A stretch of DNA of 50,923 nt, taken from the NCBI GenBank assembly GCA_040386055.1, contig JAZKGH010000189.1:1-50923 (forward strand). Direction: 5' to 3'. Source of the DNA: Bacteroidota bacterium. GTDB lineage: Bacteria; Bacteroidota; Bacteroidia; UKL13-3. The notes beneath the pieces were generated by a model. It made no database searches. It was not told the DNA's origin and saw nothing but the letters and a program-made list of their open reading frames with translations. Shown here one piece after another: positions 19,653 to 40,920 of this stretch. Position 1 is the stretch's first letter, and each line of letters starts with the position of its first letter. Position numbers and translations under genes: made by a program.

Positions 19653-19659
19653 GAAATAT

Positions 19660-20484: not shown

Positions 20485-20608
20485 GCCGGTGGCTGACTAT
20501 TCTGCTCCGCGGAGCTCAGCCACCGTGCATATTTTTTATGAAATTTAGATGAATAATGAGGCTTCATTAAGGTGCCAGAGCGTCCCGCAGGGACTGTCCG
20601 AAGGCATC
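20484..20608. repeat. Palindromic intergenic element, copy 1 of the TGCCTTCGG...GCTCWGGCACC family. It includes the probable menB terminator.
   Basis: The right arm ggtgccagagc-gtccc-gca-gggac-tgtccgaaggcat is homologous to both arms of the element at 46597-46758. The left arm, ggtggctga...ctccgcggag-ctcagccacc followed by gtgcatatttttt, forms a 9-bp stem plus a T-run. Confidence 0.55.
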
Positions 20609-20616
20609 TTAACAAG

Positions 20617-20642
20617 AAAGGCGTTGATCACTCAACGCCTTT
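20617..20642 (-). terminator. Hairpin terminator downstream of ftsH.
   Basis: The sequence aaaggcgttga-tcac-tcaacgccttt forms a perfect 11-bp stem with a 4-nt loop, 23 nt after the ftsH stop. Confidence 0.65.
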
Positions 20643-20664
20643 CTTATTCTAGAAACAATTTATC

Positions 20665-22722
20665 TTAAACAATCTTAGTGTCTTCTTCAGTCGTGGTCGG
20701 TTCTTCAATGGCATGAATCACTTCATCCTGAGCTACTCCATTTAAGTTAGGTGCTATTTCAGCAACTTTATTAAAAGGATGCGGGCCTAAGATTCCTTCC
20801 AAATCATGTGGGAATAGAATCTCTTTTTCCAGCAATAACTTCGACAGTTTTTCCAGCATATCACGTCTTTCAGAAAGCATCTTTTTGGTGTCAACATAAC
20901 ATTCGTCAATCATGTTGCGTACTTCAATATCAATCATCTCCGCAGTTTTGTCGCTGTATGGTTTTGTGAATCCATACTCGTTGTTAGGATCGTAGAAAGA
21001 TACATTTCCAACTTTAGCATTCATGCCATATATGCTCACCATTGCATATGCCATTTTGGTGATACGCTCCAGGTCGTTTTGCGCACCGGTACTGATCCTT
21101 CCGAATACAATATCTTCTGCCACGCGACCACCTAAGGTCATCATCATCATGTTTTTCATTTGTTCGGTGGTATACAAATACTGGTCTTTAGGTAAGTATT
21201 GCGCATAACCTAAAGCAGCAACTCCACGCGGTACAATTGATACTTTCACCAATGGATCCAATCCTTCGAGGAACCATCCCATAATGGCATGTCCGGATTC
21301 GTGGTATGCAATGATTTCTTTTTCTTCAGGACTAATGATTTTATTTTTCTTTTCTAATCCTCCAATGATACGATCCACCGCATCATGGAAGTCTTGCATT
21401 TCTACTTTTTCCTTGTTTCTACGGGCAGCTATCAAAGCGGCTTCGTTACACACATTGGCAATATCTGCGCCTGCAAAACCCGCTGTTTGAATAGCCAACT
21501 TAGCAGGATCAACATCATCACTCAGTTTTAAGGGTTTTAAATGTACTTTGAAAATTTCTTCACGTCCATTCAAATCCGGTTTGTCAATTGAAATCTGACG
21601 ATCAAAACGTCCCGGGCGAAGCAATGCTGAGTCCAAAATATCCGGACGGTTTGTAGCAGCCAAAATAATCACTCCGATATCGGTTGCAAAACCATCCATC
21701 TCAGTCAATAATTGGTTTAAGGTATTTTCGCGTTCATCGTTTCCGCCTTGAATAGCATTACGTCCGCGTGCTCTACCTACAGCATCAATCTCATCAATAA
21801 AAATAATACAAGGTGCTTTTTCCTTAGCCTGACGGAACAAATCGCGTACACGGCTGGCTCCTACTCCCACAAACATTTCCACGAAATCGGAACCTGAAAG
21901 AGAGAAGAACGGAACGCCTGCTTCACCTGCAACGGCTTTGGCCAGCAAGGTTTTACCGGTACCCGGAGGGCCTACTAATAAAGCGCCTTTCGGGATTTTA
22001 CCACCCAGATTGGTATATTTTTTAGGGTTCTTCAAGAAATCAACAATCTCCATGATTTCCACTTTCGCTTCATCCAGTCCTGCCACATCTTTAAATGTAA
22101 CTTTTACCAAAGTATCTTTATCAAACAGCTGAGCTTTCGATTTTCCGATATTGAAAATCTGTCCACCACCGGCACCTGCGCCACCACCCATTTTACGCAT
22201 CACAAACATCCACAATCCTATCAGCAATACGAATGGTAAAATCCATCCTAGGATATCACCGAAATAGTTGCGTTGGGTAACATATTCCACGGGCACCTGA
22301 ATGGTTTGTCCGGGATTATTTTTTTCGTAGGTAGCACGGGCAGTATTGAGGTCGGTTGAGAATTGGTTCACATCACCAATTTCAAAATAGTAGTGAGGTC
22401 CCACATCATCACCAAATAAGCCGCGATCTTTCAGATCTTTGAACTTGTCGTTTTTTACCGACTCTTTTTTCAAGTACACTTCGGCACGTTCCTTATTTAC
22501 TACCACAATTTTCTCCACGTCATTGGTCATAATCATGTCGTTTTGCACTTTGTACCAAGTGGTTTTAAGTGAAACATCATGCGGCATGAATTGTATTACG
22601 AGGAAAATGACAGCAATGATTCCATAAATCCAGTAAAAGTTGAATTTAGGAACAGGCGGCATTTTTGGTTTCTGAGAGCGCTTATCTCCGGGTTTTAAAT
22701 CTTGAGGATTGATATCTGACAT
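20665..22722 (-). CDS. ftsH: ATP-dependent zinc metalloprotease FtsH.
   Basis: It has the AAA+ Walker A motif GPPGTGKT, Walker B IIFIDEID, the SRH motif, and the HESGHA zinc site. There are two N-terminal transmembrane helices. Confidence 0.97.
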
Positions 22723-26166: not shown

Positions 26167-28551
26167 ATGTATAAAGAGCGCTTCCAATTTGCTGTACAGC
26201 ATTTTTGCCTGAGTTATGGATTGCTCATTGTGTTGTTTTGGCTGGTTCGAATAGCGGAATTTGTGTTAGTTAGCGAAGCCAACTTGTTTCCTGAGCATCC
26301 AATGCCTTTGATGGCGGCAGGTTTTGCATTTGATCTGTGGTTTTGCCTCTTCCTATCCTTAGTTACTTTCCCCTTTTATGTGGTTTCATACCTAATCATT
26401 GGGCCATTTACCCGATACTTTTTGGCTATTGGTTTTATATTGTTTTTATTGGTGGATCTGGCATTGGTTCAATATTATGTGCAAACAACGTTACCGCTCA
26501 GTGCTGATTTTTGGGGTTATTCATTAGCCGATATTCAAACAACCGTAAACGCTTCAGCCGATTTTAGCATCCTTACTTTTGTTCCTTTTATGGTAGTACT
26601 GGCATTGTTTTTTTATACTTATAAGAGAGTGCAGGAAATATTTTTGCCAAATTGGGCATTGTATATGTTTTATGGATTGGCTTTGGTTTCGAGTGTCTTT
26701 TATGTTCTGAAAACACCTGATGCAACTTGGTTTACCACTGAAAATGATTACACTTTCAGTATGAATAAGATGGCTTTTTTTGCCGAAAAATCAGGAAGAT
26801 TTTATACAGAAGACATCGACAAAAACTCAGTTGCTGATACCGAATATCCCCTGGTGCATGTTGCTGATACCATAGATGTATTGAGTCCTTATTTTGATAG
26901 TTTGGAGCAGAAACCCAATCTGGTATTTTTGGTGATTGAAGGATTAGGCGGAACATTTGTGGGACCGAATGCCCGCTATGGTGGCTGTACACCTTTTCTG
27001 GATTCACTTGCCCAACACAGTTTGTATTGGCAAAATACTTTGAGTACAACAGGAAGAACGTTTGGTGTGCTTTCATCATTGTTTGGATCACTCCCGTATA
27101 ATGACAAGGGATTTTTGGAAACGGGTTCGAATATGCCAACGCACCTTACTTTGCTTAGTTTGCTCAAACAACACGGATACAATGTCCATTACTTTTATGG
27201 TGGCAATTCCAATTTCGATTTGCAGGATGTGTTTCTGGAAAAACAGGGTGTTGATTATATTTTGAGTTCTGACAAATTCCCTGCATCGTATCAAAAATTG
27301 AAAGCCAATAGTGAAGGTTTTTCATGGGGGTATTCTGATGAAGATGTATTTAAACGCTCTCTTGAATTGTTCCCGGCTGATACAGCCAAACCAACGCTTT
27401 CAGTGTATCTTACATTGAATACACATGAACCGTTTAGGGTTCCAAATCAACCTAAATACTTAGCATTACTGGATAAAGTCATGCATACCAAAACGGGAAC
27501 CGAACAAAAAAACTACAAGCAATATGCACTTGAACTTTCAAGCTTGTTGTATACAGATGATGCTATTCGTAATTTAATGGAAGCATATAAAAAGAGACCT
27601 GATTATACCAATACGATCTTTGTGATTACGGGTGATCATCGTATGATACCAATACCCCAGGTGAATCGTATTGACCGTTTTCATGTGCCGCTGATTGTGT
27701 TTTCACCTAAGTTGAAACGCTCACAAACATTTTCGTCTGTTAATACTCATCATGATGTTACACCCACACTACTTTCGTTTTTACAACATCAAACAGGGAT
27801 GACATTTCCCTATCAAGTACATTGGTTAGGAAAACCAATGGATACAACGGTTACATTTCATTCCATTCGCGATATAGCTTTGATGCGGAATAAAAATGAA
27901 CTGATAGATTATATTGACGGAGAGTATTTTTTATCTGATAACATTGCGTACCGTATTACTCCAAAGCTTGATTTGGAAAGGCTAGCGCGTGGTTCTCCGG
28001 AGGAAAAACAATTGAAAGCAAAAATGACTGCTTTTAAGCAGATGAACAAGTATGTGTTTGCCAATAATAAAATTTACAATGACAGTTTAGGGAAGACAAT
28101 TCCAAAAGAATTTAACTTTACTTATCTTGAAAAATTGACACTCCGGTTTATGGGTGTTGAGGGCATGAATCCGGAACAGTTGTTGGCCGCAGCTTATAAA
28201 CGAACAATCGTAAAACAATACAATAACGCACGATTGATTTGCAAATGGTGTCTTATCACGAGTCCGAATTTTATCGATGTGCGGTTGGTTTTGGGTCGTA
28301 CATATGCATGGGAGGGCAATTATGATGAAGCGCAAAAACAGTTTTCCGAAAGTGTGAAACGTTCACCCCTGAATGGAGAGGCCTGGAGGGCACTCATTGA
28401 TAACGAGTTATTATTTGGTCATTATGAAAAGGCAATTGAAATTTCGAAGCAAGCACATACAATAATTCCTAAAAGGGATTATACGGATAGGATAAAGGAG
28501 GCAAAGGCTTCACTGAAAAGACTAGTGAGTATGCCACCGCCAAAGATTTAA
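26167..28551 (+). CDS. Polytopic LtaS/sulfatase-family (alkaline phosphatase superfamily) enzyme with a C-terminal TPR domain.
   Basis: The N-terminal ~190 aa contain about five transmembrane helices. These are followed by NLVFLVIEGLGG, STTGRTFG (candidate Thr nucleophile), NTHEPF and VITGDHRM. The C-terminal ~150 aa are TPR-like (LGRTYAWEGNYDEAQKQF...). Confidence 0.75.
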   Translation: MYKERFQFAVQHFCLSYGLLIVLFWLVRIAEFVLVSEANLFPEHPMPLMAAGFAFDLWFCLFLSLVTFPFYVVSYLIIGPFTRYFLAIGFILFLLVDLALVQYYVQTTLPLSADFWGYSLADIQTTVNASADFSILTFVPFMVVLALFFYTYKRVQEIFLPNWALYMFYGLALVSSVFYVLKTPDATWFTTENDYTFSMNKMAFFAEKSGRFYTEDIDKNSVADTEYPLVHVADTIDVLSPYFDSLEQKPNLVFLVIEGLGGTFVGPNARYGGCTPFLDSLAQHSLYWQNTLSTTGRTFGVLSSLFGSLPYNDKGFLETGSNMPTHLTLLSLLKQHGYNVHYFYGGNSNFDLQDVFLEKQGVDYILSSDKFPASYQKLKANSEGFSWGYSDEDVFKRSLELFPADTAKPTLSVYLTLNTHEPFRVPNQPKYLALLDKVMHTKTGTEQKNYKQYALELSSLLYTDDAIRNLMEAYKKRPDYTNTIFVITGDHRMIPIPQVNRIDRFHVPLIVFSPKLKRSQTFSSVNTHHDVTPTLLSFLQHQTGMTFPYQVHWLGKPMDTTVTFHSIRDIALMRNKNELIDYIDGEYFLSDNIAYRITPKLDLERLARGSPEEKQLKAKMTAFKQMNKYVFANNKIYNDSLGKTIPKEFNFTYLEKLTLRFMGVEGMNPEQLLAAAYKRTIVKQYNNARLICKWCLITSPNFIDVRLVLGRTYAWEGNYDEAQKQFSESVKRSPLNGEAWRALIDNELLFGHYEKAIEISKQAHTIIPKRDYTDRIKEAKASLKRLVSMPPPKI

Positions 28552-28596
28552 ACTAAGTTAATTGCATAAGCTCTATTTTTGAATATAATCTAGTAC

Positions 28597-29856
28597 ATGT
28601 ATAAACTCATATTCATATTCTGTATTTTCCTTGCAACTGTTGCAGATGCACAAATGGATACAACCCAAATGGGAGCAGATGATCTATACTCACTGGCCCG
28701 AGAGAAGGCTTTTAGTGGTGACAGAGAAGGTGCACGTAGACTGTGTAGTCTGGCATTGGAAAAAAGTCCGAATTATCATGAAATAGCATTATTGATAGGA
28801 AGGACTTATGCATGGGACGGAAAAAAAGAAGAAGCAAGAAAAATATACAAAGGTATTCTTGCGAAAGAGCCCAATCATATTGAAGCAACATTGGCGTTGG
28901 CTGATGTGGAACTGTGGGACGATAAACCTCAGGATGCATTGGTTGCATTAGATAAATGCCTGACAGTATATCCCAATAATTTTGATTTGTTGCTCAAGAA
29001 AGCAAAAGCACTCATTGATGCCAAACTGGAAAATGAAGCCATGATGGTGTTGAGCCGGGCATTGGAGATTGATCCGGGATGTGTGGCCTGTATTCAGCTC
29101 AAACAAAAAATAAAGACAAAAAAATTCAAGCATACCTTATCCGTAAATGCAGCAACTGATGTTTTCTCTGCATATTTTGATCCGATGTATTATTCATCCC
29201 TGCAATTTGGATCGGTAACCAAACCGGGCACCGTTGTGGGCCGAATCAACTACACCAACCGATTCAATCAAAGCGGGATTCAACCTGAAGTGGATTTTTA
29301 CCCGGGTTTGTGGAAAGGTGCCTATGGATATTTGAACTATGGATTTACAACCTCATCCTTATTTGCACGTCACCGTGTAGGAGGTGAAATATTTCAATCG
29401 CTGCCGCGTAGTTTTGAAGCATCCTTAGGATTGAGATATTTGGATTTTGGAGCGGGCAATTCAATGACCATATACACAGGATCATTGGGTTGGTATTATA
29501 AAAACTATTGGTTTAATGCACGCACCTTTATCACTCCGTCAAATGGAACTTTTTCACGCTCGCTAAATGTAACAGCTCGCAGGTATTTTGCAGATGCAAA
29601 CAATTACATTGGCATTACGGCAGGAGCGGGTTTTTCACCTGATGCCCGAAGGATTCAGACCAATGAAGGATTGAATCCGGGTAATAATATTTACTTATTA
29701 AAGGCTCAGAAAATTGAATGCAACCTGCAAAAGAGTATTCGGTACAATATGAATTTCACTCTTGATGTATATTATTCGCATCAGGAACTCAGTTTCAGCT
29801 ACGGAGAATATGTGAATGTGGTGGGCATTACAACAGGTATTAAAATTAGACTTTAA
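28597..29856 (+). CDS. Outer membrane protein with an N-terminal TPR region and a C-terminal YaiO-like beta-barrel.
   Basis: It has the signal peptide MYKLIFIFCIFLATVADAQ and three or four TPR repeats (IGRTYAWDGKKEEARKIY...). About 240 aa of alternating-hydrophobic beta-strand pattern follow, rich in Tyr/Gly/Asn and ending in GIKIRL. The family name is from memory of YaiO-domain proteins. Confidence 0.65.
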   Translation: MYKLIFIFCIFLATVADAQMDTTQMGADDLYSLAREKAFSGDREGARRLCSLALEKSPNYHEIALLIGRTYAWDGKKEEARKIYKGILAKEPNHIEATLALADVELWDDKPQDALVALDKCLTVYPNNFDLLLKKAKALIDAKLENEAMMVLSRALEIDPGCVACIQLKQKIKTKKFKHTLSVNAATDVFSAYFDPMYYSSLQFGSVTKPGTVVGRINYTNRFNQSGIQPEVDFYPGLWKGAYGYLNYGFTTSSLFARHRVGGEIFQSLPRSFEASLGLRYLDFGAGNSMTIYTGSLGWYYKNYWFNARTFITPSNGTFSRSLNVTARRYFADANNYIGITAGAGFSPDARRIQTNEGLNPGNNIYLLKAQKIECNLQKSIRYNMNFTLDVYYSHQELSFSYGEYVNVVGITTGIKIRL

Positions 29857-29867
29857 AGCAGTAACAA

Positions 29868-30677
29868 ATGCTAACAACAGATCCTATTGGTAAAAATAAT
29901 GTGGTTGTGAAGGGTAATCTTCACGCCCGCGAAACCATTATTTTTAGTAATGGGTTTGGTACAGAACAATCTGTTTGGGATAAAGTGATAACTCCTTTTT
30001 TAGAGAATTACCGCATTATTTTGTATGACCTTGCTGGTTCCGGAAAATCGGATATGAATGCTTTTAGCTCCCATAAATATGATAGCCTGCGGGTGCATGC
30101 TGATGATTTAATTGACATATGCAAACGCATGCTTGTGAAAGATGCGATTTTTATTGGACATTCAGTAAGCGGAATGATAGGCATGCTTGCAGCGATTAAA
30201 GCTCCGCAGTATTTTTCGAAGATGGTTTTCATAAGTGCCTCTCCGCGTTACATCAATGCAGATGAATATGTTGGCGGATTCACACAAGAAACGTTAGATG
30301 AATTGTACCGGAACATGGAAACAAATTATTTTGCCTGGATTAGTGGTTTTGCCCCAATGACAATGCTCAATAGTGATAAACCTGAATTGGCAGAAGGGTT
30401 TTTGCAAACACTATCTGCCATTCGTCCTGATGTGGCTGTATCCGTAGTACGCACCATTTTTCAAAGCGATTACAGAAGTAGTTTGAAAGAGTTAACCAAA
30501 CCTGCGCTATTGATTCATTGCGATAACGATATGGCTGTTCCGGTAACTGTAGGAGCCTATATGAATGAACATATACCAAACAGTCAATTGGAGTTAATAG
30601 CTGCAGAAGGCCATTATCCTCATGTGAGTGCACCGGAGGCTGTAATCAAAGCAATTCAACGATTTATAGAAGTATGA
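29868..30677 (+). CDS. RsbQ / D14 / KAI2-type alpha/beta hydrolase.
   Basis: This 269-aa protein reads KNNVVVKGN...IIFSNGFGTEQSVW...ILYDLAGSGKSD...FIGHSVSGMIGM (nucleophile elbow) ...LLIHCDNDMAVP...AEGHYPHVSAPE. It is collinear with B. subtilis RsbQ as I recall it, and the Ser/Asp/His triad is intact (about S99, D221, H249). Confidence 0.85.
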   Translation: MLTTDPIGKNNVVVKGNLHARETIIFSNGFGTEQSVWDKVITPFLENYRIILYDLAGSGKSDMNAFSSHKYDSLRVHADDLIDICKRMLVKDAIFIGHSVSGMIGMLAAIKAPQYFSKMVFISASPRYINADEYVGGFTQETLDELYRNMETNYFAWISGFAPMTMLNSDKPELAEGFLQTLSAIRPDVAVSVVRTIFQSDYRSSLKELTKPALLIHCDNDMAVPVTVGAYMNEHIPNSQLELIAAEGHYPHVSAPEAVIKAIQRFIEV

Positions 30678-33151
30678 TGGAACGGGAACAAGATATAGAT
30701 TGGAATGCACACGCACTTGATTTTTTGGTGAAGCTTTCACCGATAAAAAAAATAAGGGAACAAGCACAGTTGATACGTGAAGTATTTTCACTGGTGGAAG
30801 AGTATATGCTGGCAGATGCTGTTTGTTTTTACCGCAATTTTGATGAACTCACCACACGAGTTGTTTTAGCGTCAAAGAAACAGGTTTTTCATTCGCACCT
30901 GAATCCGGATAGTGTACAAAACTATATCCGCTCAGACGAATATCAATCTGTGGAAAAAATATTTCAACCACTGTTTTTCATCAATGAGCAATATGAAAAG
31001 TGTATTGTGATTCCGCTATACAATACTGCATTGTCGGGTGGTTTGATTATGGGCTGGAAGGCCCTTAAAACGGATGAGGCAGGGTTCGATCGTTTTTTAA
31101 CGGGTGTGCAGATGGGAATGAATGAGATGATGCAACGTATGAGTGTGTATCATGAAATTGATGAACTCACCACGCGTTTTAATGCCATTCTCGAAACCAT
31201 TCCTGAAGGAATTGTGTATGTAGATGATTCGGGAAAATCAGCATGGGTAAATACAGTGGGTAGTGAATTGCTTAAGTTGAATCAGGGGAGCAATCAACCT
31301 TTTTTGGTTGCAACAGCTATGCAGGAATTGCGCAGCGGAGCAGTGAATCAGGAGGAGATTAATGAAATAGCGAATAAACTTTTCAGCGAACCCAATCAAA
31401 CCATTAAGGATTGGAAATGGATTATCGGAGACCCCATTCTATCCGTACTGCGTGTGGCCTGCAAACCCATTTCTTCACCGCTCGTAAATGGCCGGTTATG
31501 GGTATTTACCGATATTACCTTTTCACATATTGCTAATGAGCAACTAAAGGAATTAAATGAGGAACTCGCCATAAAACGTAATCTGGCCGATGAACAGAAT
31601 CAAGCTAAGTCTGAATTTCTGGCCAATATGAGTCACGAGATCCGTACACCAATGAATGGTGTAATCGGGATGACAAGTTTGCTTATGCATACGATACTCA
31701 CTGAAGAGCAAAAAGAATATGTTGACACTATTCGATTGAGTGGTGAAACACTGCTTTCACTTATCAATGATATTTTAGATTTATCCAAAATTGAATCTGG
31801 TAAGTTAGAAATTGAAGAAGCTCCAATGAGCTTGGTAAAACTGGTGGAAGAAACATACGACTTGCTTTCGGTACGTGCTAATGAAAAGGGGCTGGATTTA
31901 TTATACCTCATTGATCCGAATGTTCCGTCAGAGGTATTGGGTGATCCTACCCGTTTGCGACAAATATTGCTTAACCTTGTTTCCAACGGTATCAAGTTTA
32001 CTTCCAAAGGAGATATCCTCATTCATGTACAATCGATTGGTAAGCAAGAGGACGTTTACCATATTCAGATAAGCGTGAAAGACACCGGAATTGGGATACC
32101 TGCCAATAAATTCAACACTATTTTTGAGAGCTTTTCACAGGTTGACACATCCACTACACGAAAATATGGAGGAACGGGATTAGGCTTAAGCATTTGTCAG
32201 CGTTTAGTGAATATGATGGGAGGAACGATTTCTGTGAGCAGCACGGAAGGGTTAGGCTCTACCTTCACATTTAATATAAAAGTACACGCTAACCGTGAAG
32301 TGAAGCAGTTTGATTTTGCCCCCGTTGTAAAAGACACGCTGCTTACCGGCAAAAAAATACTCATTCTGGATGACAATGAAACTAACTTGCAGATTTTACA
32401 ATCCCAATGTAAATTATGGGGAATGAATCCGGTAATTTTTAACGATTGTCATTTGGCCATTGCGGAAATGGGACAGCAGGAGTTTGATTTGGCCATTGTA
32501 GATATGCTTATGGAGGAGTATGACGGTGTTGCTGTGGCAAGAGAAATGAAAATGAAATTTCCGGATAAAAAAATTCCGATTATTTTATTCAGTTCATTAG
32601 GATTCTCTCATTTTAAGAATAAGGAAGATAAAGATCTGTTTGCAGCAATACTGGTAAAGCCCACAAAACATAGCATGTTGAAAAAGACGATGATGGATAT
32701 ATTGGGTAGAAAAGAAGGATCTGAAATGGCAACAATGTCGGCAAGTGTTCTTTTATCTCAAACACAATCCATTGACAATATCCGTATCTTAGTGGCAGAG
32801 GATAATGACACCAATCAGAAACTCATTCGTAAAACTCTTGAAAAGCTGGGTTACGGATGTGAGCTGGTGAACAATGGTGTGGAGGCTGTAGAGGCTGCAA
32901 AGCGCAAGCAATACGATTTGATTTTGATGGATGTAATGATGCCGGAAATGGATGGGTATGAAGCAACTCAACAGATTATTGTGGGTGCTAAAGCCCATAA
33001 ACCCATTATTATAGCCATGACGGCAAATGCGTTGGCAGATGATAAGAACAAGGCTATGCGGGCAGGCATGGATGACTATATCAGCAAGCCTTTCCGCATT
33101 GCAGATATTGAAGAAAAAATAAACAAATGGAAACCGCATTTTCAGAATTGA
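30674..33151 (+). CDS. Cytoplasmic hybrid sensor histidine kinase with the architecture GAF-like, PAS, HisKA, HATPase_c, REC, REC.
   Basis: No transmembrane helix is present. The PAS region reads RFNAILETIPEGIVYVDD...GRLWVFTDIT, the H-box reads SEFLANMSHEIRTPMNGV, and the kinase has N/G boxes (LLNLVSNGIKFT, DTGIGIP, GGTGLGLSI). There are two receiver domains (LILDDNE...IVDMLM; ILVAEDND...LILMDVMMPEMDG...SKP). The start ATGATG overlaps the hydrolase stop by 4 nt. Confidence 0.9.
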   Translation: MMEREQDIDWNAHALDFLVKLSPIKKIREQAQLIREVFSLVEEYMLADAVCFYRNFDELTTRVVLASKKQVFHSHLNPDSVQNYIRSDEYQSVEKIFQPLFFINEQYEKCIVIPLYNTALSGGLIMGWKALKTDEAGFDRFLTGVQMGMNEMMQRMSVYHEIDELTTRFNAILETIPEGIVYVDDSGKSAWVNTVGSELLKLNQGSNQPFLVATAMQELRSGAVNQEEINEIANKLFSEPNQTIKDWKWIIGDPILSVLRVACKPISSPLVNGRLWVFTDITFSHIANEQLKELNEELAIKRNLADEQNQAKSEFLANMSHEIRTPMNGVIGMTSLLMHTILTEEQKEYVDTIRLSGETLLSLINDILDLSKIESGKLEIEEAPMSLVKLVEETYDLLSVRANEKGLDLLYLIDPNVPSEVLGDPTRLRQILLNLVSNGIKFTSKGDILIHVQSIGKQEDVYHIQISVKDTGIGIPANKFNTIFESFSQVDTSTTRKYGGTGLGLSICQRLVNMMGGTISVSSTEGLGSTFTFNIKVHANREVKQFDFAPVVKDTLLTGKKILILDDNETNLQILQSQCKLWGMNPVIFNDCHLAIAEMGQQEFDLAIVDMLMEEYDGVAVAREMKMKFPDKKIPIILFSSLGFSHFKNKEDKDLFAAILVKPTKHSMLKKTMMDILGRKEGSEMATMSASVLLSQTQSIDNIRILVAEDNDTNQKLIRKTLEKLGYGCELVNNGVEAVEAAKRKQYDLILMDVMMPEMDGYEATQQIIVGAKAHKPIIIAMTANALADDKNKAMRAGMDDYISKPFRIADIEEKINKWKPHFQN

Positions 33152-33153
33152 CT

Positions 33154-33510
33154 ATGAACAAACAGGAATACACTCATATTAATTTGTCATACCTCTATGA
33201 TATTGCAGATAATGATATTGATTTCGTAAAGGAGATGATTACGGATTACATCATAAAAGTACCGGTGCAGTTTACCGAAATGCAGACCGTATTCTGGGAA
33301 CGCAACTTTGAACAAACACATTTTATTGCGCATAAAATTAAATCGGCTTTTCAGTTTGTGGGGGCACAGCAACTGGTTGAATTGGCCCGCAATATTGAAA
33401 GGGTAAGTGAGACACAAGATATAGAAACCATCACACAGGATCTGGCCGCAATGGAGCCTGTTGTAAAATTGGTATTAACAGAATTGCAATCTGAATTGTC
33501 TGTTCTCTAA
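33154..33510 (+). CDS. Stand-alone Hpt (histidine phosphotransfer) protein.
   Basis: It reads FIAHKIKSAFQFVGAQQLVELARNIE, the HxxKG-type Hpt motif, in a ~118-aa helical protein. The ATG lies 2 nt after the kinase stop. The longer 33127 start would overlap the kinase by 25 nt. Confidence 0.8.
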   Translation: MNKQEYTHINLSYLYDIADNDIDFVKEMITDYIIKVPVQFTEMQTVFWERNFEQTHFIAHKIKSAFQFVGAQQLVELARNIERVSETQDIETITQDLAAMEPVVKLVLTELQSELSVL

Positions 33511-33525
33511 TTTCATTCGGACCTC

Positions 33526-33888
33526 ATGAAAAGAATATTAATAGTAGAAGATGAAGACTTGATTTTGAAGGCGCTTGAATTCAGGCTTCGGAGGGACGGC
33601 TATGACGTCATAAAGGCAAAGGATGGTCGCGATGGATTAAAGGCCATTGAAACGGAAATGTTTGATTTACTGATTACCGACATGATGCTTCCCTTTAATA
33701 ATGGACTTGAAGTGGTGAATAAAGCAAAAGAAATGAAGGGTAAGAATTTTCCGGTGATTGTTCTTTCCAATGTTGGCTTGGAAAATGTGGTATTGGATGC
33801 TTTCAAGCTGGGTGCTGACGATTATATTACTAAACCATTTAGCCCGGTAGAGTTATCGATAAGGGTAAAAAGGCTCTTAAATAAGTAG
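33526..33888 (+). CDS. Single-domain CheY-like response regulator with no output domain.
   Basis: This 120-aa protein reads ILIVEDEDL...DLLITDMMLP...VIVLSN...DDYITKPF, so all the receiver acidic pocket, Thr/Ser and Lys positions are present. Confidence 0.9.
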   Translation: MKRILIVEDEDLILKALEFRLRRDGYDVIKAKDGRDGLKAIETEMFDLLITDMMLPFNNGLEVVNKAKEMKGKNFPVIVLSNVGLENVVLDAFKLGADDYITKPFSPVELSIRVKRLLNK

Positions 33889-33932
33889 GATTGCAGACCT
33901 TGCTGTTTATATGGCCCCGATTTGGTTTTCGC

Positions 33933-35042
33933 ATGGAGTCACTATCCTCGAGCAAATCAGACCAGTATGATACTATCATTACATTTTGTATTGCCTTTAT
34001 TGTTTGCTGTCTTTCGGGTGCGTTCATTACCGGGGTTTATTTATTTTATATCAGGTTTCGTAATCAGTACTATGCCAAACGTATTGCCAGATTGGAAGAA
34101 CGTTACGGCTTGTTGCTCACCGGAATTATTTTTGATGAGGAAGACGAACAATTCGAAGAAAAGAGAAAGAAATTAATCAAGCATTTTAAGAAAACATATT
34201 TGCGTTCGCATTTTAATAAGCGTGTGTTGCGCAAAGAACTTCTTAAATTATATAAGAGCTTTAGCGGGTCCTCACAAAAAGTTTTGCGGGATTTGTATCT
34301 TGAATTGCGTCTGCACAAAGAAGCATTAGCAGATTTAAACAGTACCGATTGGAGTGTAAGAGCTGATGCAGTTAAAGAACTCGGTCAGATACAGTACACA
34401 GATGCAAAGCTTAAAATGTTGAAGTTGAGTTCTCACGAAAATCCAGAATTACGGCTGGAGGCACAAGCCGCTTTTCTGGCATTGGAAAAGGAAAATCCAT
34501 TTGGGTTTTTGGAGACAGCTAAAGCAAAAATTACCGAATGGCAACAGTTGAATCTGGAAGAAATAGCCAAACGAATAGAGTCGGATAAAATACCATTGTT
34601 TGCCAGTTGGTTTGGGTTACGCAACCAATCAGTGGTTGAATTTTGTGTGAAGATGACGGCAACCTTTAATCAGTTTGAGTCGGGTGAGGCGCTGATACAA
34701 TTGTTGCATGCCAAGGATATTCGTGTTGCCAAGGAAGCGGTAAAAGCATTGGGAAATCTGTTTGTAGTTGAAGCACAATTGCCCCTCATAGAATTATATC
34801 CCGGAAGCTCTCAGGAGGTTCAGAATGAAATTATCATGAGTCTTGGGAAACTTGGGGGAACAGAAGTGTTGCAGTTTTTAACAGATATTTTATACACGGC
34901 TCCGCATGAGCAAGCCATGAAGGCAGGTATGGCCATTCGCTCAACAGGATATGATGGAGATCTTATTTTGCAGCAGGCATTGCAAAGTGAAGATACACAT
35001 GTAGTAGCTATTGCGGAACATATGTTAGATGAAAGAATATAA
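33933..35042 (+). CDS. Membrane-anchored HEAT/PBS-lyase-like repeat protein.
   Basis: It has one N-terminal transmembrane helix (TIITFCIAFIVCCLSGAFITGVYLFYI), followed by repeated helical units: DWSVRADAVKELGQI, NPELRLEAQAAFLAL, DIRVAKEAVKALGNL and QEVQNEIIMSLGKLG. The start could instead be the TTG at 33891, which is 2 nt after the receiver stop. Confidence 0.65.
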   Translation: MESLSSSKSDQYDTIITFCIAFIVCCLSGAFITGVYLFYIRFRNQYYAKRIARLEERYGLLLTGIIFDEEDEQFEEKRKKLIKHFKKTYLRSHFNKRVLRKELLKLYKSFSGSSQKVLRDLYLELRLHKEALADLNSTDWSVRADAVKELGQIQYTDAKLKMLKLSSHENPELRLEAQAAFLALEKENPFGFLETAKAKITEWQQLNLEEIAKRIESDKIPLFASWFGLRNQSVVEFCVKMTATFNQFESGEALIQLLHAKDIRVAKEAVKALGNLFVVEAQLPLIELYPGSSQEVQNEIIMSLGKLGGTEVLQFLTDILYTAPHEQAMKAGMAIRSTGYDGDLILQQALQSEDTHVVAIAEHMLDERI

Positions 35043-35044
35043 GG

Positions 35045-36457
35045 ATGATTGAGATTTTTAATAATGCTATTCTATTATATGGTATAACGATTACGTTATC
35101 GTATGTGCTATTGGCTATTATTTCGGCAAGGGCACTCAATTATTATATTCGTAAAAACAAGTTTGTATCACATGAGGCATTGCTGTCATCACCCAATGCA
35201 CCATCAGTTTCATTGATTGCTCCCGCTTACAATGAAGAAAAAACAATTGTCGAGAATATTCGGTCCCTCTTGTCTATTCACTACAATAACTTTGAAGTAA
35301 TTATTGTGAATGATGGTAGTAAGGACAATACATTACAAACCATGATTGAGGCGTATGATTTACAGAAAGTAAATTTTGCCATACACCAGGAGTTACCCGG
35401 AAAACCGATAAGGGGTGTATATAAAGCCATGAATCCTGCATATAAAAAGCTCACTGTAGTAGATAAGGTAAATGGCGGGAAAGCAGATGCACTGAATGCC
35501 GGTATCAATATTTCCTCCTATGATTTGATTACTTGTATTGACGTGGATTGTATTATTGAACAGGACGGAATATTGCGTATGGTAAAACCTTTTATGGAGG
35601 AAAACGTAAAGGTGATTGCCAGTGGAGGAGTCATTCGCATTGCCAATTCATGTGAGATTGAAGATGGAAAATTAATTAAAGCACATGTTCCTAAAAGTTT
35701 GGTTGCAAGATTTCAGGTAATTGAATACTTAAGGGCTTTTTTAATGGGGCGTATGGGATGGAGTAAACTCAATGGACTCTTGCTTATATCCGGTGCGATG
35801 GGAATGTTTGACAGACGTATAGCCATAGCCAGTGGAGGGTATAATCACAATACTGTGGGTGAGGATATGGAACTGGTGGTGCGCATGAGGCGTTATATGG
35901 CCGATCGGAAAATAAAATATAAAGTAACCTACATTCCTGATCCACTTTGTTGGACGGAAGCTCCTTCCGATTACAAAATTCTTTCCCGCCAACGTAATCG
36001 CTGGATGCGGGGAACTATGGAAACACTATGGATCCACCGCAAACTGGCCTTCAATCCTCGTTATGGATTATTGGGATTGATAAGTTATCCATACTGGATG
36101 TTTTACGAATGGTTGGCTCCGGTGATTGAGTTTTTAGGAGTGTGTTATTTCGTATTTTTGATTGTAACGGGTTACGACAACTGGTATTTGTTTATGGTTT
36201 TGTTTCTGGTAGTGTATGCCTTTGCCATTTTCATGTCGTTTCTGGCATTATTGTATGAGGAACTTACATATCATCAGTATACAAGCAAGCGCGATACCTT
36301 GAAGTTGATGCTTACTGTTTTGCTTGAGCCGATTATCTATCATCCACGCAGCACCTGGTGGGGACTCAAAGGAAATATTGACAAAATAAAAGGTAAGAAT
36401 ACATGGGGAGAAATGACCCGTGCTGGTTTCAACAAGGTTGAAAATAAGAATGTTTAA
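35045..36457 (+). CDS. Processive family-2 glycosyltransferase (a PgaC/IcaA/BcsA/NodC-like polysaccharide synthase).
   Basis: It has an N-terminal transmembrane helix, then SLIAPAYNEE, IIVNDGSKDNT, GGKADALNAG, CIDVDCII (DxD), GEDMEL and SRQRNRWMRG (the Q-x-x-R-W processivity motif). About four C-terminal transmembrane helices follow. No PilZ-like RxxxR/DxSxxG tail is visible. It starts 2 nt after the HEAT gene stop. Confidence 0.85.
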   Translation: MIEIFNNAILLYGITITLSYVLLAIISARALNYYIRKNKFVSHEALLSSPNAPSVSLIAPAYNEEKTIVENIRSLLSIHYNNFEVIIVNDGSKDNTLQTMIEAYDLQKVNFAIHQELPGKPIRGVYKAMNPAYKKLTVVDKVNGGKADALNAGINISSYDLITCIDVDCIIEQDGILRMVKPFMEENVKVIASGGVIRIANSCEIEDGKLIKAHVPKSLVARFQVIEYLRAFLMGRMGWSKLNGLLLISGAMGMFDRRIAIASGGYNHNTVGEDMELVVRMRRYMADRKIKYKVTYIPDPLCWTEAPSDYKILSRQRNRWMRGTMETLWIHRKLAFNPRYGLLGLISYPYWMFYEWLAPVIEFLGVCYFVFLIVTGYDNWYLFMVLFLVVYAFAIFMSFLALLYEELTYHQYTSKRDTLKLMLTVLLEPIIYHPRSTWWGLKGNIDKIKGKNTWGEMTRAGFNKVENKNV

Positions 36458-36517: not shown

Positions 36518-37465
36518 ATGGTACACATGAATACATCCGGAATAGCTATACATGGTGGAGCAGGAACGATTTTACGTTCCCTTATGACTCCTGAAAAAGA
36601 GGCACTATACATTAAAGGGTTACAGGATGCAATTATTGCAGGAAATGCGGTATTGGAAAAAGGCGGATCAAGCTTGGATGCAGTAGAAATTGCGGTGATG
36701 ACACTTGAAGATTTCCCCCTGTTTAATGCGGGCAAAGGTGCTGTGTTTACCAACAAGGGAACGCACGAAATGGATGCCAGCATTATGGATGGATTAACAT
36801 TGGAGGCGGGTGCCGTTAGTGGTATCAGCAATGTGCAAAATCCGGTTCATTTAGCAAAGGTGATAAAGGAAAAAAGTGGTCATGTTTTTTTATGCGGACC
36901 CGAAGCAGAAGCTTTTGCCAAACAGATGGGATTGCCGTTTCAACCGGATGCTTATTTTTATGAAGAAGGGCGCCACAAACAATGGCAGGAAGTAAAAGAC
37001 AGTAATGGCTATCAACTGGATCATACAGTGAATAGCGGTGAAGGAAAAAAGTTCGGAACCGTTGGCGCAGTGGCGTTGGATAAACATGGAAACCTAGCAG
37101 CAGCAACATCAACAGGCGGCATGACCAACAAACGTTTCGGGCGCATTGGCGACACTCCGATGATTGGCGCAGGAACGTATGCAAACAATAAAACATGTGC
37201 AATCAGTTGCACAGGACATGGTGAATATTTTATCCGTGCCGTAGTGGCTTATGATATTAGCTGTTTAATGGAATACAAAGGAATGAGCTTGAAGGAAGCA
37301 TGCGACTTTGTTGTGAAAGATAAGCTTGTAAAATTTGGTGGTGAAGGTGGATTGGTTGCGATGGATGCTATGGGAAATATTGAGTTACCCTTTAACAGCG
37401 AAGGAATGTACAGAGCGTGGAAAAAGGGAGATGGAAATATTGAGGTGAGGATTTACGAAGATTAA
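36518..37465 (+). CDS. iaaA: Isoaspartyl peptidase / L-asparaginase (Ntn hydrolase).
   Basis: It reads IAIHGGAG...FNAGKGAVF...GTVGAVALD.HGNLAAATSTGGMTNK..GRIGDTP.IGAGTYA. The autocleavage Thr lies in GTVGAV. Confidence 0.9.
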   Translation: MVHMNTSGIAIHGGAGTILRSLMTPEKEALYIKGLQDAIIAGNAVLEKGGSSLDAVEIAVMTLEDFPLFNAGKGAVFTNKGTHEMDASIMDGLTLEAGAVSGISNVQNPVHLAKVIKEKSGHVFLCGPEAEAFAKQMGLPFQPDAYFYEEGRHKQWQEVKDSNGYQLDHTVNSGEGKKFGTVGAVALDKHGNLAAATSTGGMTNKRFGRIGDTPMIGAGTYANNKTCAISCTGHGEYFIRAVVAYDISCLMEYKGMSLKEACDFVVKDKLVKFGGEGGLVAMDAMGNIELPFNSEGMYRAWKKGDGNIEVRIYED

Positions 37466-37587: not shown

Positions 37588-38457
37588 TTAAGCAGTCACT
37601 TCTTCACTCGCAATAAACTTGCGCTCTTTCAATAAATACTGATTGCCTCTTACAAGGATGCTCACACGTAAGTTTTCTACTGCAATGGGTTCGCCCATGC
37701 CAACTTCGGTAATATTGCTGTGACGTATATCTTTTCCATCTACAATAACCACAGCACCGCTACCCACTACCTCCAAATTGGTACCACCTGTTACAATTAT
37801 ACCGGTATCTTCACCCAACCCTATTCCGGTACATTGCGGATTGCTGGCTACGGCTTGTGCCAAACGGTTAAAACGACCACGTTTGTCGAAATGTGAATCA
37901 ATAATCACGTTGGCCATAAACGCCAAACCGGTTGTGATTTTTACTTCACCTTTTAAGTGCGCCAACTCACTTTTGCCTTGATAGATCATGGTATTGCTCA
38001 TAGCCATTGCACCCGCACTGGTTCCTGCAATTACAAATCCTTCTTCATTCCAATAACGTTCGTGTAAAATGGTATAGATATCGGTGCCGCCAAAAATGCT
38101 GGTTAAACGCAACTGATCGCCTCCGCTAAACATAATACCATCCGCTTCTTTTACACGCTGAATATATTCTTCGTTGAATACATCTTCGCGTTTACGTATA
38201 TCCAATACACCCACATTTACGCACCCTATTTTACCAAATGCTTCCTGATAGTTTGCACCTACTTCAGTAGGAATGGAAGATGCTGTGGTGATAACTTCAA
38301 TACGTTTTTCAACGCCACCCACTTCATCCACAAAACGTTTTAAAATGCCAAGCTCGAAAAAATTGAGTCGGTTTCGCTGTATAAAGCCTTGCTCTAAGTC
38401 TGTTCCCTTATCTTCTGCACCGCCTACAGAAATCAGTTTTCCTTTAGGATATTCCAA
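37588..38457 (-). CDS. cphB: Cyanophycinase (peptidase S51).
   Basis: It reads LISVGGAEDKG...GIMFSGGDQLRL...VIAGTSAGAMAMS (Ser nucleophile) ...IIDSHF..RGR..RL, the cyanophycinase pattern. Confidence 0.9.
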   Translation of the reverse strand: MEYPKGKLISVGGAEDKGTDLEQGFIQRNRLNFFELGILKRFVDEVGGVEKRIEVITTASSIPTEVGANYQEAFGKIGCVNVGVLDIRKREDVFNEEYIQRVKEADGIMFSGGDQLRLTSIFGGTDIYTILHERYWNEEGFVIAGTSAGAMAMSNTMIYQGKSELAHLKGEVKITTGLAFMANVIIDSHFDKRGRFNRLAQAVASNPQCTGIGLGEDTGIIVTGGTNLEVVGSGAVVIVDGKDIRHSNITEVGMGEPIAVENLRVSILVRGNQYLLKERKFIASEEVTA

Positions 38458-39021: not shown

Positions 39022-40920
39022 TTATTTGCGGATTAATAATTTTTGAACAATTGATTGGCCACCAAAGGTCAATTGCGCCATATATAAACCTTCCGGAATA
39101 TCAGTCAAGGCGATGCGATGTTCGCGACTATTAATGGTTTGTTGTGAAACAATTTTACCGGTGATATCCATGATGGTGATATCACCTGATGCACCCGCAG
39201 GTATCTCAATAGATACATATTCATTTGCCGGATTCGGATACATTGTGAAAGAAGTATTCTTAACTGTTGTTTCATGCACCGAAACATAAGAACCTCCAAA
39301 GCTTAAGTTGTCAAGATAAAGTAAACCACCCATACCCGAAATACTATTGAATTTGAAGATAGCTTTATCGGCAGTAGCAAAATTGGTAAGATCAATAGTT
39401 TCGGTTCTCCATTCATCAGCTTTAGGTGTAAAAATACAAGCCTGCAAACTAAGTGCGTTTACAATGGGTTCCATTCTAGTGGCTAATTGCTGTCCGCCTT
39501 TTTTGTATATACTGGTAAATGTTGCTCCGCAATCGGTTGAGATAAGCACTTCAAGTGTATCTGCAAAATTGGTTTCAGAGGCTATATAAGGGGGAGTATA
39601 TCTATAATAAGTAAAGGCGAGATCCAAGTTGAGTTCCTTTTTGCTAAGCGCAGCAATATTGACAGCAGGCAATGAAAAACTTTCAATGGCATTGCGGGAG
39701 TAAAATAATAAGGCTGTATTAAAAGATGACATGGAATTTTGTCCCGATTTGCTAACCTCATCATCTATATACCATTCGAACACACTGCCGGAAGGATGGA
39801 AATACCAGGTGTTTGAAGTGTCGTCAAACGTTTGTGTGACGATGGATTTAGCCGCTCCCGTTGCCACATCAATTGCCAGTTCCAGTTTATTGTTGGAAAG
39901 AATTGAATCAGCTGGAGTATCATTTACACCGGTAATTGAAGCAGTAAACAGATACTGGCCATTGTTAGGTAGGTTTAATGATAATGGAACCATGGCATAG
40001 TGATTTGGCAGAATGGTTCCTGTCCATTGCTGAACGGTTGAAGCATTGCCGGTAGAAAGTGTAATGCTCAGAGAATGGATGATGGAATCCCCGTTGTTGC
40101 GCACAAAGCCTGTTGTTTGCAGGTTGTTTGAGCAAAAATGTTGTTGGTCATCAAAATCAAATAGATCGGCATCCAGATGAGGAACATTGCGGTTTATCAG
40201 AAACGAATAACTTTTTTGGGTGATGGTACTGTTGGGAATAGTATGTCCTACATTGGGAACAGATTCAAATTGTACGGGTGCATTGTTCTTTTTTAAGATC
40301 TCTACCAGTGCGGAGATTTGAGCGGTGTATGTGAAATCAGATTCTCCAACAGTGATAAACATAGGCAAGAACTCGGCATTGTCATAGCTGAACTGAAGAC
40401 TTGCGATTGAGTCGTTTTGCACATCCTTCAACCCTTGCATAGCCGGTGTATTCAATAGTAAAGCTTTAAACCACTCCGGATGATCCAGGCCATATTTTAG
40501 TGCACTGCGTCCACCGAGTGAAAAACCTTGAAGGACTACGGCTTGTGTATCGATAGTGTATTTGGTTTTTGCAAATTCTATGGAAGCTTTGACGATTTCC
40601 TGATCACCTTTGGGTTGGTAGAAATCTTTGTTTGCATCAGAACCTCCGTCAGGACAAACAAAAATAGTATTTGGGTAAATGGCAGGCCAGTTGAATGAAG
40701 TGATTAAAGCATTGCGGTAGTTGGTGCTATTGTCGCCCAAACCATGCAAACAAATCATCAGCCGGTAAGCCTGGGTAGAATCATAGTTTGAAGGAACATA
40801 ACAAGAAAGTGTTCTGTTTTCTGCATTGAAGGGAATGGTAGTATTAAATGATCCTGTTTGTGCAGAGGCAGTCATCAGTGTGATGACAAGCAGTGTGAAG
40901 AAGGTGGTTAATGTTTTCAT
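39022..40920 (-). CDS. Secreted esterase (alpha/beta hydrolase, phospholipase/carboxylesterase-like) with a T9SS C-terminal sorting domain.
   Basis: It has a signal peptide, then LHGLGDNSTNY, GFSLGGRSA (GxSxG) and VGHTIP. The C-terminal segment reads FTMYPNPANEYVSIEI...GLYMAQL...KLLIRK, as expected for a Por/T9SS secretion tail. Confidence 0.75.
   Translation of the reverse strand: MKTLTTFFTLLVITLMTASAQTGSFNTTIPFNAENRTLSCYVPSNYDSTQAYRLMICLHGLGDNSTNYRNALITSFNWPAIYPNTIFVCPDGGSDANKDFYQPKGDQEIVKASIEFAKTKYTIDTQAVVLQGFSLGGRSALKYGLDHPEWFKALLLNTPAMQGLKDVQNDSIASLQFSYDNAEFLPMFITVGESDFTYTAQISALVEILKKNNAPVQFESVPNVGHTIPNSTITQKSYSFLINRNVPHLDADLFDFDDQQHFCSNNLQTTGFVRNNGDSIIHSLSITLSTGNASTVQQWTGTILPNHYAMVPLSLNLPNNGQYLFTASITGVNDTPADSILSNNKLELAIDVATGAAKSIVTQTFDDTSNTWYFHPSGSVFEWYIDDEVSKSGQNSMSSFNTALLFYSRNAIESFSLPAVNIAALSKKELNLDLAFTYYRYTPPYIASETNFADTLEVLISTDCGATFTSIYKKGGQQLATRMEPIVNALSLQACIFTPKADEWRTETIDLTNFATADKAIFKFNSISGMGGLLYLDNLSFGGSYVSVHETTVKNTSFTMYPNPANEYVSIEIPAGASGDITIMDITGKIVSQQTINSREHRIALTDIPEGLYMAQLTFGGQSIVQKLLIRK

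Follow-up and report, generated by a model that had tools for sequence, protein, structure and literature searches.

Synthase-dependent exopolysaccharide (EPS) systems combine a processive family 2 glycosyltransferase (GT2) of the inner membrane, whose transmembrane (TM) part also serves as translocation channel, with an outer-membrane (OM) exporter made of tetratricopeptide repeats (TPR) and a barrel, with polymer-modifying enzymes, and with a receptor for cyclic di-GMP (c-di-GMP). Post-translational control of these pathways is known to run via c-di-GMP (PMC12802240). In Myxococcus xanthus, the phosphorylated form of EpsW, a single-domain response regulator, binds and activates the phosphoglycosyl transferase EpsZ, the first enzyme in polysaccharide synthesis (PMC12802240). 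Diguanylate cyclases are reported to be lacking in Bacteroidetes (Galperin census, PMC1183210; 2023 review, PMC10745434), which agrees with the premise of a preliminary description of the DNA studied here, that Bacteroidota are poor in c-di-GMP signalling. Bacteroidota, major bacteria of gut, soil, plants and sea, are rich in histidine kinases and have few diguanylate cyclases or none. Here we analysed a stretch of 50,923 nt from a Bacteroidota bacterium (lineage UKL13-3; contig JAZKGH010000189.1 of assembly GCA_040386055.1), referred to below as the window, in which eight genes at 26167..36457 encode a GT2, a TPR-barrel OM protein, a membrane-anchored HEAT-repeat protein and a phosphorelay. 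The GT2 and exporter features of the EPS class are present, no c-di-GMP receptor domain was found, and a receiver (REC) domain occupies its position. The reading that we favour, with a probability of roughly 0.6, is a synthase-dependent polysaccharide secretion system with a genome-specific sensor, switched at the protein level by the phosphorylated receiver. The preliminary description did not recognise the gene combination as a described system, and we likewise found no account of a REC-HEAT-GT2-YaiO system in open-access papers or bioRxiv, a search scope that leaves subscription journals outside. What appears to be new here is the regulatory partner set and the candidate porin family on a synthase-dependent layout; the kind of machine is already known.

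The genes and the evidence for their assignment are as follows.

26167..28551, plus strand, gene 1: LtaS/OpgB-type sulfatase-fold membrane transferase (Pfam Sulfatase PF00884 plus TPR)
28597..29856, plus strand, gene 2: TPR and YaiO-family barrel OM protein (Pfam YaiO PF19413)
29868..30677, plus strand, gene 3: RsbQ/KAI2/D14-type alpha/beta hydrolase (PDB sequence search)
30674..33151, plus strand, gene 4: soluble hybrid histidine kinase (Pfam HisKA, HATPase_c and two Response_reg)
33127..33510 (alternative ATG 33154), plus strand, gene 5: stand-alone Hpt protein (Pfam Hpt)
33526..33888, plus strand, gene 6: single-domain receiver, REC (Pfam Response_reg)
33891..35042 (TTG; alternative ATG 33933), plus strand, gene 7: single-pass TM and HEAT-repeat protein (Pfam HEAT_2)
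35045..36457, plus strand, gene 8: GT2 synthase (Pfam Glycos_transf_2, Glyco_tranf_2_3 and Chitin_synth_2)

On re-examination, coordinates, domains, motifs and spacing all matched the eight packed plus-strand genes reported in the preliminary description, and the hidden Markov model (HMM) searches that it had proposed (Pfam/NCBIfam) upheld every domain call. The gaps between genes 1 to 8 are 45, 11, -4, +2 (or -25), 15, 2 (or 44) and 2 nt, with the alternatives set by the start codons of Hpt (33154 or 33127) and HEAT (TTG 33891 or ATG 33933). In a terminator scan, none of the seven gaps holds a terminator-like site, the overall counts being at chance level; a sigma-70 promoter scan is not informative for promoters of this phylum.

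To place the locus among its relatives, we scanned one genome per GTDB species, obtained more than 525 GT2 relatives, and analysed the best 80 loci by tblastn, clustering of open reading frames and family HMMs built from the clusters. Frequencies refer to 74 loci with at least 1 kb upstream or to 50 loci with at least 6 kb on both flanks (full flanks). Going by record titles, all 80 loci but one are from Bacteroidota, covering Flavobacteriales, Sphingobacteriales, Chitinophagales, Cytophagales and Bacteroidales, and the system is also present in Pedobacter, Mucilaginibacter and Chitinophaga. The remaining locus (L076) is a typical REC-HEAT-GT2 set in a metagenome-assembled genome (MAG) labelled 'uncultured Limnohabitans sp.' (Betaproteobacteria), for which a binning error or lateral transfer is possible. 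The HEAT gene is adjacent to the GT2 gene without exception (74/74; 50/50 with full flanks), and a single-domain receiver is encoded directly upstream of HEAT-GT2 in 73/74 loci (49/50 with full flanks). The one exception for REC, L016, is truncated by the contig end, and tblastn shows a partial REC there. Among the loci with full flanks, TPR-YaiO is found in 44/50 (88%), a hybrid kinase in 25/50, Hpt in 29/50 (19 of them inside the kinase), a kinase and/or Hpt in 31/50, and the sulfatase-fold enzyme in 17/50 (34%). The packaging of the relay varies: Flavobacterium johnsoniae CI04 has the order [GAF-HisKA-HATPase-REC-Hpt]-REC-YaiO-HEAT-GT2, which amounts to a four-step relay in another form, some Bacteroidales have a REC-Hpt fusion, and Hpt stands alone elsewhere. 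The conserved unit is therefore REC-HEAT-GT2 with YaiO, often together with a sulfatase-fold enzyme, and the sensor module is swappable. Because the REC-HEAT-GT2 order recurs in five orders, the arrangement is far beyond chance. The synteny check suggested in the preliminary description thus found the GT2, HEAT and YaiO orthologues next to signalling genes. Its view of the eight genes as one machine stands for REC-HEAT-GT2 with YaiO and often for the sulfatase; it does not stand for the kinase and Hpt, which are exchanged between loci, or for the hydrolase, which recurs in one other locus (L044).

Further variants were seen at individual loci. A protein of ~390 aa with an N-terminal TM helix and no Pfam/NCBIfam match is encoded beside YaiO and co-oriented with it in L002 (5870-7048, minus strand) and 10 other loci, and also in L084 (10714-11892, minus strand); this protein, which is absent from the window, is possibly an additional part of the system. 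In Flavobacterium omnivorum (L071, ~17000-21400), a second HEAT-GT2-YaiO set without its own receiver directly follows REC-HEAT-GT2-sulfatase-YaiO. In one MAG (L014, 7424-8785), the YaiO and HEAT genes are separated by a gene for a CotH kinase-family protein (Pfam E 2e-59).

The GT2 carries the motifs NDGSKD89, DVD166, GED272 and QRNRW316, and its catalytic motifs are all at least 90% conserved among 75 orthologues. In the predicted topology, an N-terminal TM helix (residues 7-32) leads into a GT-A domain on the cytoplasmic side, and a helical TM bundle forms the C-terminal part. No C-terminal regulatory domain is present: in the AlphaFold2 (AF2) model (predicted local distance difference test, pLDDT, 71; predicted template modelling score, pTM, 0.77) the chain ends ~20 residues past the last TM helix, so that a PilZ domain has no room. 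PDB sequence and profile searches returned only the GT-A N-terminus plus a weak BcsA match, and a model-based search was used instead. The top fold match was the Chlorella virus hyaluronan synthase (E 2e-11, TM-score about 0.6, ~480 aligned columns), followed among full-length matches by BcsA (E 5e-10, ~480 aligned columns), whereas non-processive GT2s align with the GT-A core only. The best named NCBIfam family is PgaC_IcaA (TIGR03937; E 5.5e-39, 134 bits against a curated cutoff of 422), the XrtG-associated glycosyltransferase is the other nearest named family, and identity to Escherichia coli PgaC is 29%; the 24 NCBIfam matches do not include the OpgH model. As to whether the enzyme groups with processive or with lipid and lipopolysaccharide glycosyltransferases, a check that the preliminary description had called for, NCBIfam and the fold search both place it on the processive side. 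Judged by its model, gene 8 looks like a membrane-integrated processive-type synthase/translocase.

Compared with PgaABCD/IcaADBC, the locus shares an inner-membrane GT2 of similar size and topology, a small adjacent membrane partner (PgaD/IcaD versus TM-HEAT), and an OM protein with TPR and a barrel. It differs in that the GT2 scores far below the PgaC cutoff, that the OM protein has a YaiO barrel and no detectable PgaA similarity (the PgaA model gives 21 bits against a cutoff of 367, in the TPR region only), and that the partner is a 370-aa HEAT solenoid rather than a two-TM peptide, with a receiver rather than c-di-GMP as the proposed allosteric input. There is also no PgaB-like deacetylase/hydrolase: a PgaB/IcaB-type deacetylase was found neither in the window nor among the conserved neighbours. 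Membership in Pga is ruled out by the PgaC equivalog score and the lack of PgaB and PgaA. The minimal layout of a GT2 and a TPR/barrel OM protein with few accessory genes is shared with E. coli NfrB-NfrA. NfrB, however, carries at its C-terminus a domain that binds c-di-GMP, and its annotation names it c-di-GMP-activated; BLASTP found no similarity of window proteins to NfrB or NfrA, which rules out membership in Nfr. With Bcs, the locus has in common a processive-type GT2 with an integral channel, as the strong BcsA fold match suggests, and a TPR-barrel exporter; it lacks PilZ and BcsB, and its barrel belongs to another family. Where Bcs includes BcsG, the synthase is coupled to a membrane decorator of the alkaline-phosphatase superfamily (BcsA-BcsG structures 9fmv and 9b8v). 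A comparable coupling is seen here as GT2-sulfatase fusions, although the transferase is LtaS/OpgB-like and not BcsG/EptA-like.

These fusions join the two enzymes in single proteins of about 1,140-1,180 aa (Pfam GT2 58-329, Sulfatase 743-1034) in 6/80 loci (L011, 9986-13414; L027; L034; L046; L049; L067), which is strong evidence that both work on the same substrate. As a case of a synthase joined to a putative lipid-head-group transferase, they are independent of BcsA-BcsG. In the window, the gene 1 product begins with a number of hydrophobic TM segments, about 5, within residues 6-181, followed by a periplasmic catalytic domain (250-539; Sulfatase E 9e-37) and C-terminal TPR (about 683-770; TPR_14/19). 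Its metal and nucleophile residues E258, T298 and D490-H491 show conservation across 16 orthologues. Among solved structures, Vibrio VP1736 (3lxq, E 4e-20) and LtaS (4uoo) come nearest, and the protein is not near EptA or BcsG. The top NCBIfam matches are phosphoglycerol transferase I (OpgB) and LtaS, with all equivalog models far below cutoff, and by sequence the protein belongs to the LtaS/OpgB (MdoB) glycerophosphotransferases at superfamily level only. Its likely role is to decorate the growing polymer, with phosphoglycerol or another head-group of that kind. Gene 2 comprises a signal peptide, periplasmic TPR (about 27-175, matching several TPR families) and a YaiO barrel (178-402+; PF19413 E 4e-59, TIGR04390 E 2e-49). 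A structure search for the barrel found no solved relative, and the papers listed for YaiO mention it mostly as an E. coli PCR marker. By analogy with the TPR-barrel exporters, the YaiO protein is a candidate export porin. The preliminary description had all structural EPS roles filled; this holds for the GT2 and TPR-barrel features, with the reservation that the barrel family differs and the export role is putative, and a putative modifying enzyme is encoded here and in 34% of loci.

The YaiO barrel has one further glycan context. In E. coli, yaiO, which gave the family its name, belongs to a yaiS-yaiP-yaiX-yaiO cluster whose other genes encode a deacetylase, a glycosyltransferase of GT2 type and an acyltransferase, and because it too sits among glycan genes, YaiO barrels seem to be generally tied to glycan genes. 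In K-12 (L081, 380069-384616), yaiX (acyltransferase) lies between yaiP (GT2) and yaiO, downstream of yaiS (deacetylase), and is split by IS2, so that this glycan locus is disrupted. The E. coli cluster is uncharacterised and, unlike the locus in the window, has no REC, HEAT or sulfatase genes, and its YaiO lacks TPR. An orthologous relationship to yaiOPS is ruled out, and the E. coli cluster is no more than a distant analogue, since YaiP is only 26% identical over the GT-A core and YaiO gives no BLASTP match.

The same two genes bear on where the product ends up. OpgB, which decorates periplasmic glucans, and LtaS are the best named matches of gene 1; the cluster conserves neither a glycoside hydrolase nor a deacetylase of the kind usual for exported EPS; YaiO is missing in 6/50 complete loci; and Bacteroidales HEAT partners bear periplasmic SPOR (peptidoglycan-binding) domains. 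All this would suit a glycan retained in the periplasm or envelope, such as a phosphoglycerol glucan resembling osmoregulated periplasmic glucans or a membrane-anchored, teichoic-acid-like glycopolymer, which the relay would tune to osmotic or envelope conditions. We nevertheless consider a retained product unlikely, as a TPR-barrel OM protein accompanies 88% of the loci, as in the PgaA, BcsC, PelB, AlgK/E and NfrA exporters, the GT2 resembles PgaC/IcaA and hyaluronan synthase more than it does the other named GT2 families and has no OpgH model among its NCBIfam matches, and no OpgG- or OpgD-like gene is conserved nearby.

The invariant neighbour of the synthase, the HEAT protein, has one TM helix and a HEAT_2 domain (Pfam E 3e-17), and its AF2 model (pLDDT 86) shows a long TM helix followed by about 9 helical repeats. 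Fold and sequence matches were limited to generic designed alphaRep/ARM proteins and importins and gave no functional lead. Because positive charges follow the TM helix, the solenoid is placed in the cytoplasm, a topology that agrees with Bacteroidales homologues, whose N-terminal extensions carry periplasmic SPOR domains. The HEAT domain, the receiver and the GT domain are thereby predicted to lie on the same, cytoplasmic side of the membrane. The NCBI call for the start codon is ATG 33933 (369 aa), whereas TTG 33891 gives 383 aa and leaves a 2-nt gap after REC. We favour the longer form because 'LFIWPRF', encoded from TTG 33891, is kept at the N-terminus of the homologues P0123 and P0125; by this sequence comparison, TTG 33891 is probably the true start. 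Word-indexed searches caught only 18 and 33 homologues, the family being too divergent for them, while an exhaustive profile search, whose matches come without taxonomy, returned about 705 clusters (50% identity) at E<=1e-30. The 150th-ranked member of this family still lies within an Hpt-REC-HEAT-GT2-sulfatase-x-YaiO cluster. We infer that the HEAT protein is an obligate partner of the synthase, and we propose it as the docking site of the receiver.

The receiver itself has 120 aa (Response_reg E 3e-25) and no output domain. It contains the acidic pocket E8-D9, the phospho-acceptor D52, S81 and K103; across 74 family members, conservation is at least 90% for the acidic pocket, Asp and Lys and 70-90% for the switch Ser. 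Upstream of it, the hybrid kinase consists of an N-terminal sensor region of ~300 aa, HisKA (H321), HATPase (N-box 434, G2-box 500) and two REC domains (D610 in the first; the second at 705-816), and it has no hydrophobic segment, indicating a soluble protein. Its PAS match is sub-threshold (E 0.005, residues 168-204; 1e-4 in the L044 orthologue) and not at the extreme N-terminus, residues 1-150 having no domain match. The Hpt protein (Pfam E 5e-8) has its phosphotransfer His at H69 within an HKIKS motif. Every domain and residue required for the complete four-step His-Asp-His-Asp relay claimed in the preliminary description was thus identified. The domain content and gene linkage suggest that the receiver is the terminal relay acceptor and a near-invariant partner of the synthase. 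It appears tied to the synthase and not to a given kinase, because it stays in the ~40% of loci without a kinase or Hpt nearby.

A receiver without an output domain may also act indirectly, as a phosphate sink or connector, or by signalling to an unlinked transcription factor, in which case the cluster would be controlled transcriptionally and the linkage would reflect co-regulation. Single-domain receivers are often sinks or hubs, as MrrA is reported to be, and the HEAT family lacks a strongly conserved surface. Set against this, REC is immediately upstream of HEAT-GT2 in all but one of the 74 loci, including those without a nearby kinase or Hpt; the REC/HEAT/GT2 gaps of 2-3 nt or overlaps suggest stoichiometric co-expression; and a DNA-binding output is encoded in no cluster variant. 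An indirect role of the receiver is therefore quite unlikely in our view. Direct, post-translational control of the synthase is proposed instead because no cluster variant has a DNA-binding output and no c-di-GMP module turned up, and because the REC, HEAT and GT domains are predicted to be cytoplasmic and their genes are 2-3 nt apart or overlap. The nearest precedent is the EpsW-EpsZ pair, which the proposal resembles in that a phosphorylated single-domain response regulator would activate polysaccharide synthesis post-translationally. It differs in that EpsW-EpsZ belongs to a Wzx/Wzy pathway, with a phosphoglycosyl transferase as target, Che-like input and no HEAT adaptor; the targets are not implied to be homologous.

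The search for c-di-GMP modules covered PilZ, GGDEF, EAL and MshEN. In agreement with the preliminary description, the eight cluster proteins had no such match in Pfam/NCBIfam at E<=0.01, and the 21 further proteins of the window that were scanned had none either. At the same threshold, the eight cluster proteins also gave no Pfam/NCBIfam match to a GIL domain or a degenerate GGDEF/I-site. Gene linkage, together with the absence of DNA-binding and c-di-GMP domains from the encoded sequences, points to relay control of the synthase in place of c-di-GMP.

The input of the relay in this genome appears to include gene 3. Its PDB matches are KAI2-like (6e-68) and RsbQ (1WOM; 1e-65), its catalytic triad is S99-D221-H249, and by sequence it belongs unambiguously to the RsbQ/KAI2/D14 type. 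The end of its reading frame and the beginning of the kinase gene share 4 nt. The hydrolase, which occurs in 2/81 loci, recurs in L044 only, directly upstream of the orthologous kinase and Hpt, in a hydrolase-kinase-Hpt cassette that is transcribed divergently from REC-HEAT-GT2; the GT2 there is 56% identical. Since it recurs only beside the orthologous kinase, the hydrolase is assigned to the sensor module and not to polymer modification; a role as polymer esterase or modifier is ruled out on the same ground, together with its RsbQ/KAI2-like type. Bipartite RsbQ-PAS sensing modules, including some with hybrid-kinase outputs in Gram-negative bacteria, were published in 2011 (Nadezhdin et al., PMC3183031). 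As in RsbQ-RsbP and RsbQ-PAS modules and in plant KAI2/D14, a hydrolase of this family is encoded here directly upstream of, and overlapping, a soluble kinase-output protein. Whereas RsbQ-PAS modules have an RsbP-type PAS domain as the most N-terminal domain of the partner, the PAS signal of the kinase here is weak and not at the extreme N-terminus, and unlike in RsbQ-RsbP, the downstream target is a polysaccharide synthase module and not sigma-B. By analogy with these modules, the hydrolase is presumed to be the small-molecule input of the adjacent kinase.

The rarity of the hydrolase (2/81 loci) and the varying type and position of the kinase might suggest that an unrelated RsbQ-kinase-Hpt cassette came to sit by chance between the envelope genes and REC-HEAT-GT2. 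We find this scarcely credible: a kinase and/or Hpt lies beside REC in 31/50 loci from five orders, the same hydrolase-kinase-Hpt cassette is again adjacent to the core in L044 despite a GT2 of only 56% identity, and the gaps are very short or overlapping throughout, with no terminator-like site between genes.

Taken together, protein-level switching by the phosphorylated receiver could work as follows. The GT2 would polymerise a UDP-sugar and pass the growing chain through a membrane channel of its own. On the periplasmic side, the LtaS/OpgB-type enzyme would decorate the chain, the probable substituent being a head-group taken from a phospholipid, for instance phosphoglycerol, and the TPR-YaiO barrel would carry the chain across the outer membrane. 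A small molecule sensed by the RsbQ/KAI2-type hydrolase, which would act on the soluble hybrid kinase, may set the flow of phosphate from His321 to the Asp of the kinase receiver, to His69 of Hpt and to Asp52 of REC. The D52-phosphorylated receiver would then bind the HEAT solenoid, the GT2 or both, and so switch polymerisation on or off at the protein level, the HEAT route being the simplest. Other genomes would plug different kinases into the same REC-HEAT-GT2 core, and the receiver would fill the role that the c-di-GMP receptors PilZ, PgaD, PelD or MshEN have in other phyla.

Several observations weigh against receiver control of an exported polymer. GGDEF proteins do occur in some environmental Bacteroidota. 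At about 240 aa, the YaiO barrel is small, and polymer export is not known for any YaiO barrel. The cluster conserves no glycoside hydrolase, lyase or deacetylase of the periplasm, which sets it apart from Pga, Bcs, Pel and Alg, and about 40% of the loci have no kinase or Hpt nearby. The mean identity within the HEAT family is 24%, with the fold kept and no obvious conserved binding surface, and the confidence of the GT2 model is only moderate (pLDDT 71). Finally, PgaC-PgaD binds c-di-GMP without a recognisable domain (summarised in PMC12802240). The last point, together with a single-TM HEAT partner positioned like PgaD and the c-di-AMP cyclases that Bacteroidetes have (PMC10745434), is what a nucleotide second messenger (c-di-GMP, c-di-AMP or other) acting via a cryptic HEAT-GT2 site would build on, with the relay being additional or unrelated. 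We judge such a site very unlikely, given that no PilZ, GGDEF I-site, MshEN or GIL domain was detected in the cluster proteins, that census and reviews report no diguanylate cyclases in Bacteroidetes, and that the invariant partner is a canonical phosphorylatable receiver.

Beyond receiver control of the synthase in this genome, we offer a wider version as a tentative idea: a phylum-wide switch in which the phospho-receiver docks on a HEAT adaptor that gates a processive GT2, YaiO forms a new class of export porin and, in some lineages, a KAI2/RsbQ hydrolase lets a butenolide-like or other, possibly host-derived, molecule control the matrix. The cluster is a testable candidate for polysaccharide control without c-di-GMP and is present in the genetically tractable F. 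johnsoniae. If the proposal is true, the YaiO barrel family and a HEAT-repeat family of about 700 clusters would each gain a first function, and a KAI2/RsbQ-type receptor of bacteria would be linked with a defined physiological output.

A distinct variant occurs in Bacteroidales/Rikenellaceae (L048, L052, L054, L061, L062, L066, L069, L078, L080 and others), in which a DUF5916 protein (about 900 aa) is encoded upstream of REC. In the Bacteroidales variant the YaiO protein is shorter (about 360 aa) and the HEAT partner has 540-780 aa, with SPOR in the extension in L031. The opposite strand encodes a GNAT acetyltransferase and a ~920-aa protein secreted through type IX secretion (T9SS), with Ig/cadherin-like and Por_Secre_tail domains and ~650 unannotated N-terminal aa. 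Annotation of the Bacteroidales accessory proteins c6, c7 and c10 for clues to the polymer returned only the T9SS tail, Ig-like and DUF5916 domains.

Elsewhere in the window, a cyanophycin group lies downstream of the cluster, with an Asparaginase_2 of isoaspartyl peptidase type (36518-37465, plus strand), a Peptidase_S51 of cyanophycinase type (37588-38457, minus strand) and a cyanophycin synthetase with a Cyanophycin_syn N-domain and Mur ligase domains (43892-46543, plus strand). A separate two-component pair at 41037-43692 (minus strand) is made up of a LytS-type His_kinase (PF06580) with TPR and a response regulator with LytTR. Two esterase/carboxylesterase-like proteins with C-terminal T9SS sorting domains (Por_Secre_tail) are encoded at 39022-40920 (minus strand) and 47575-48801 (plus strand), which confirms that the contig is of Bacteroidota origin. 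Near the start of the window, the gene for a 470-aa protein without a Pfam match (749-2161, plus strand) overlaps by 4 nt a second sulfatase-fold gene (2158-3684, plus strand; 508 aa, Sulfatase E 9e-11), and the two products could form a membrane transferase pair.

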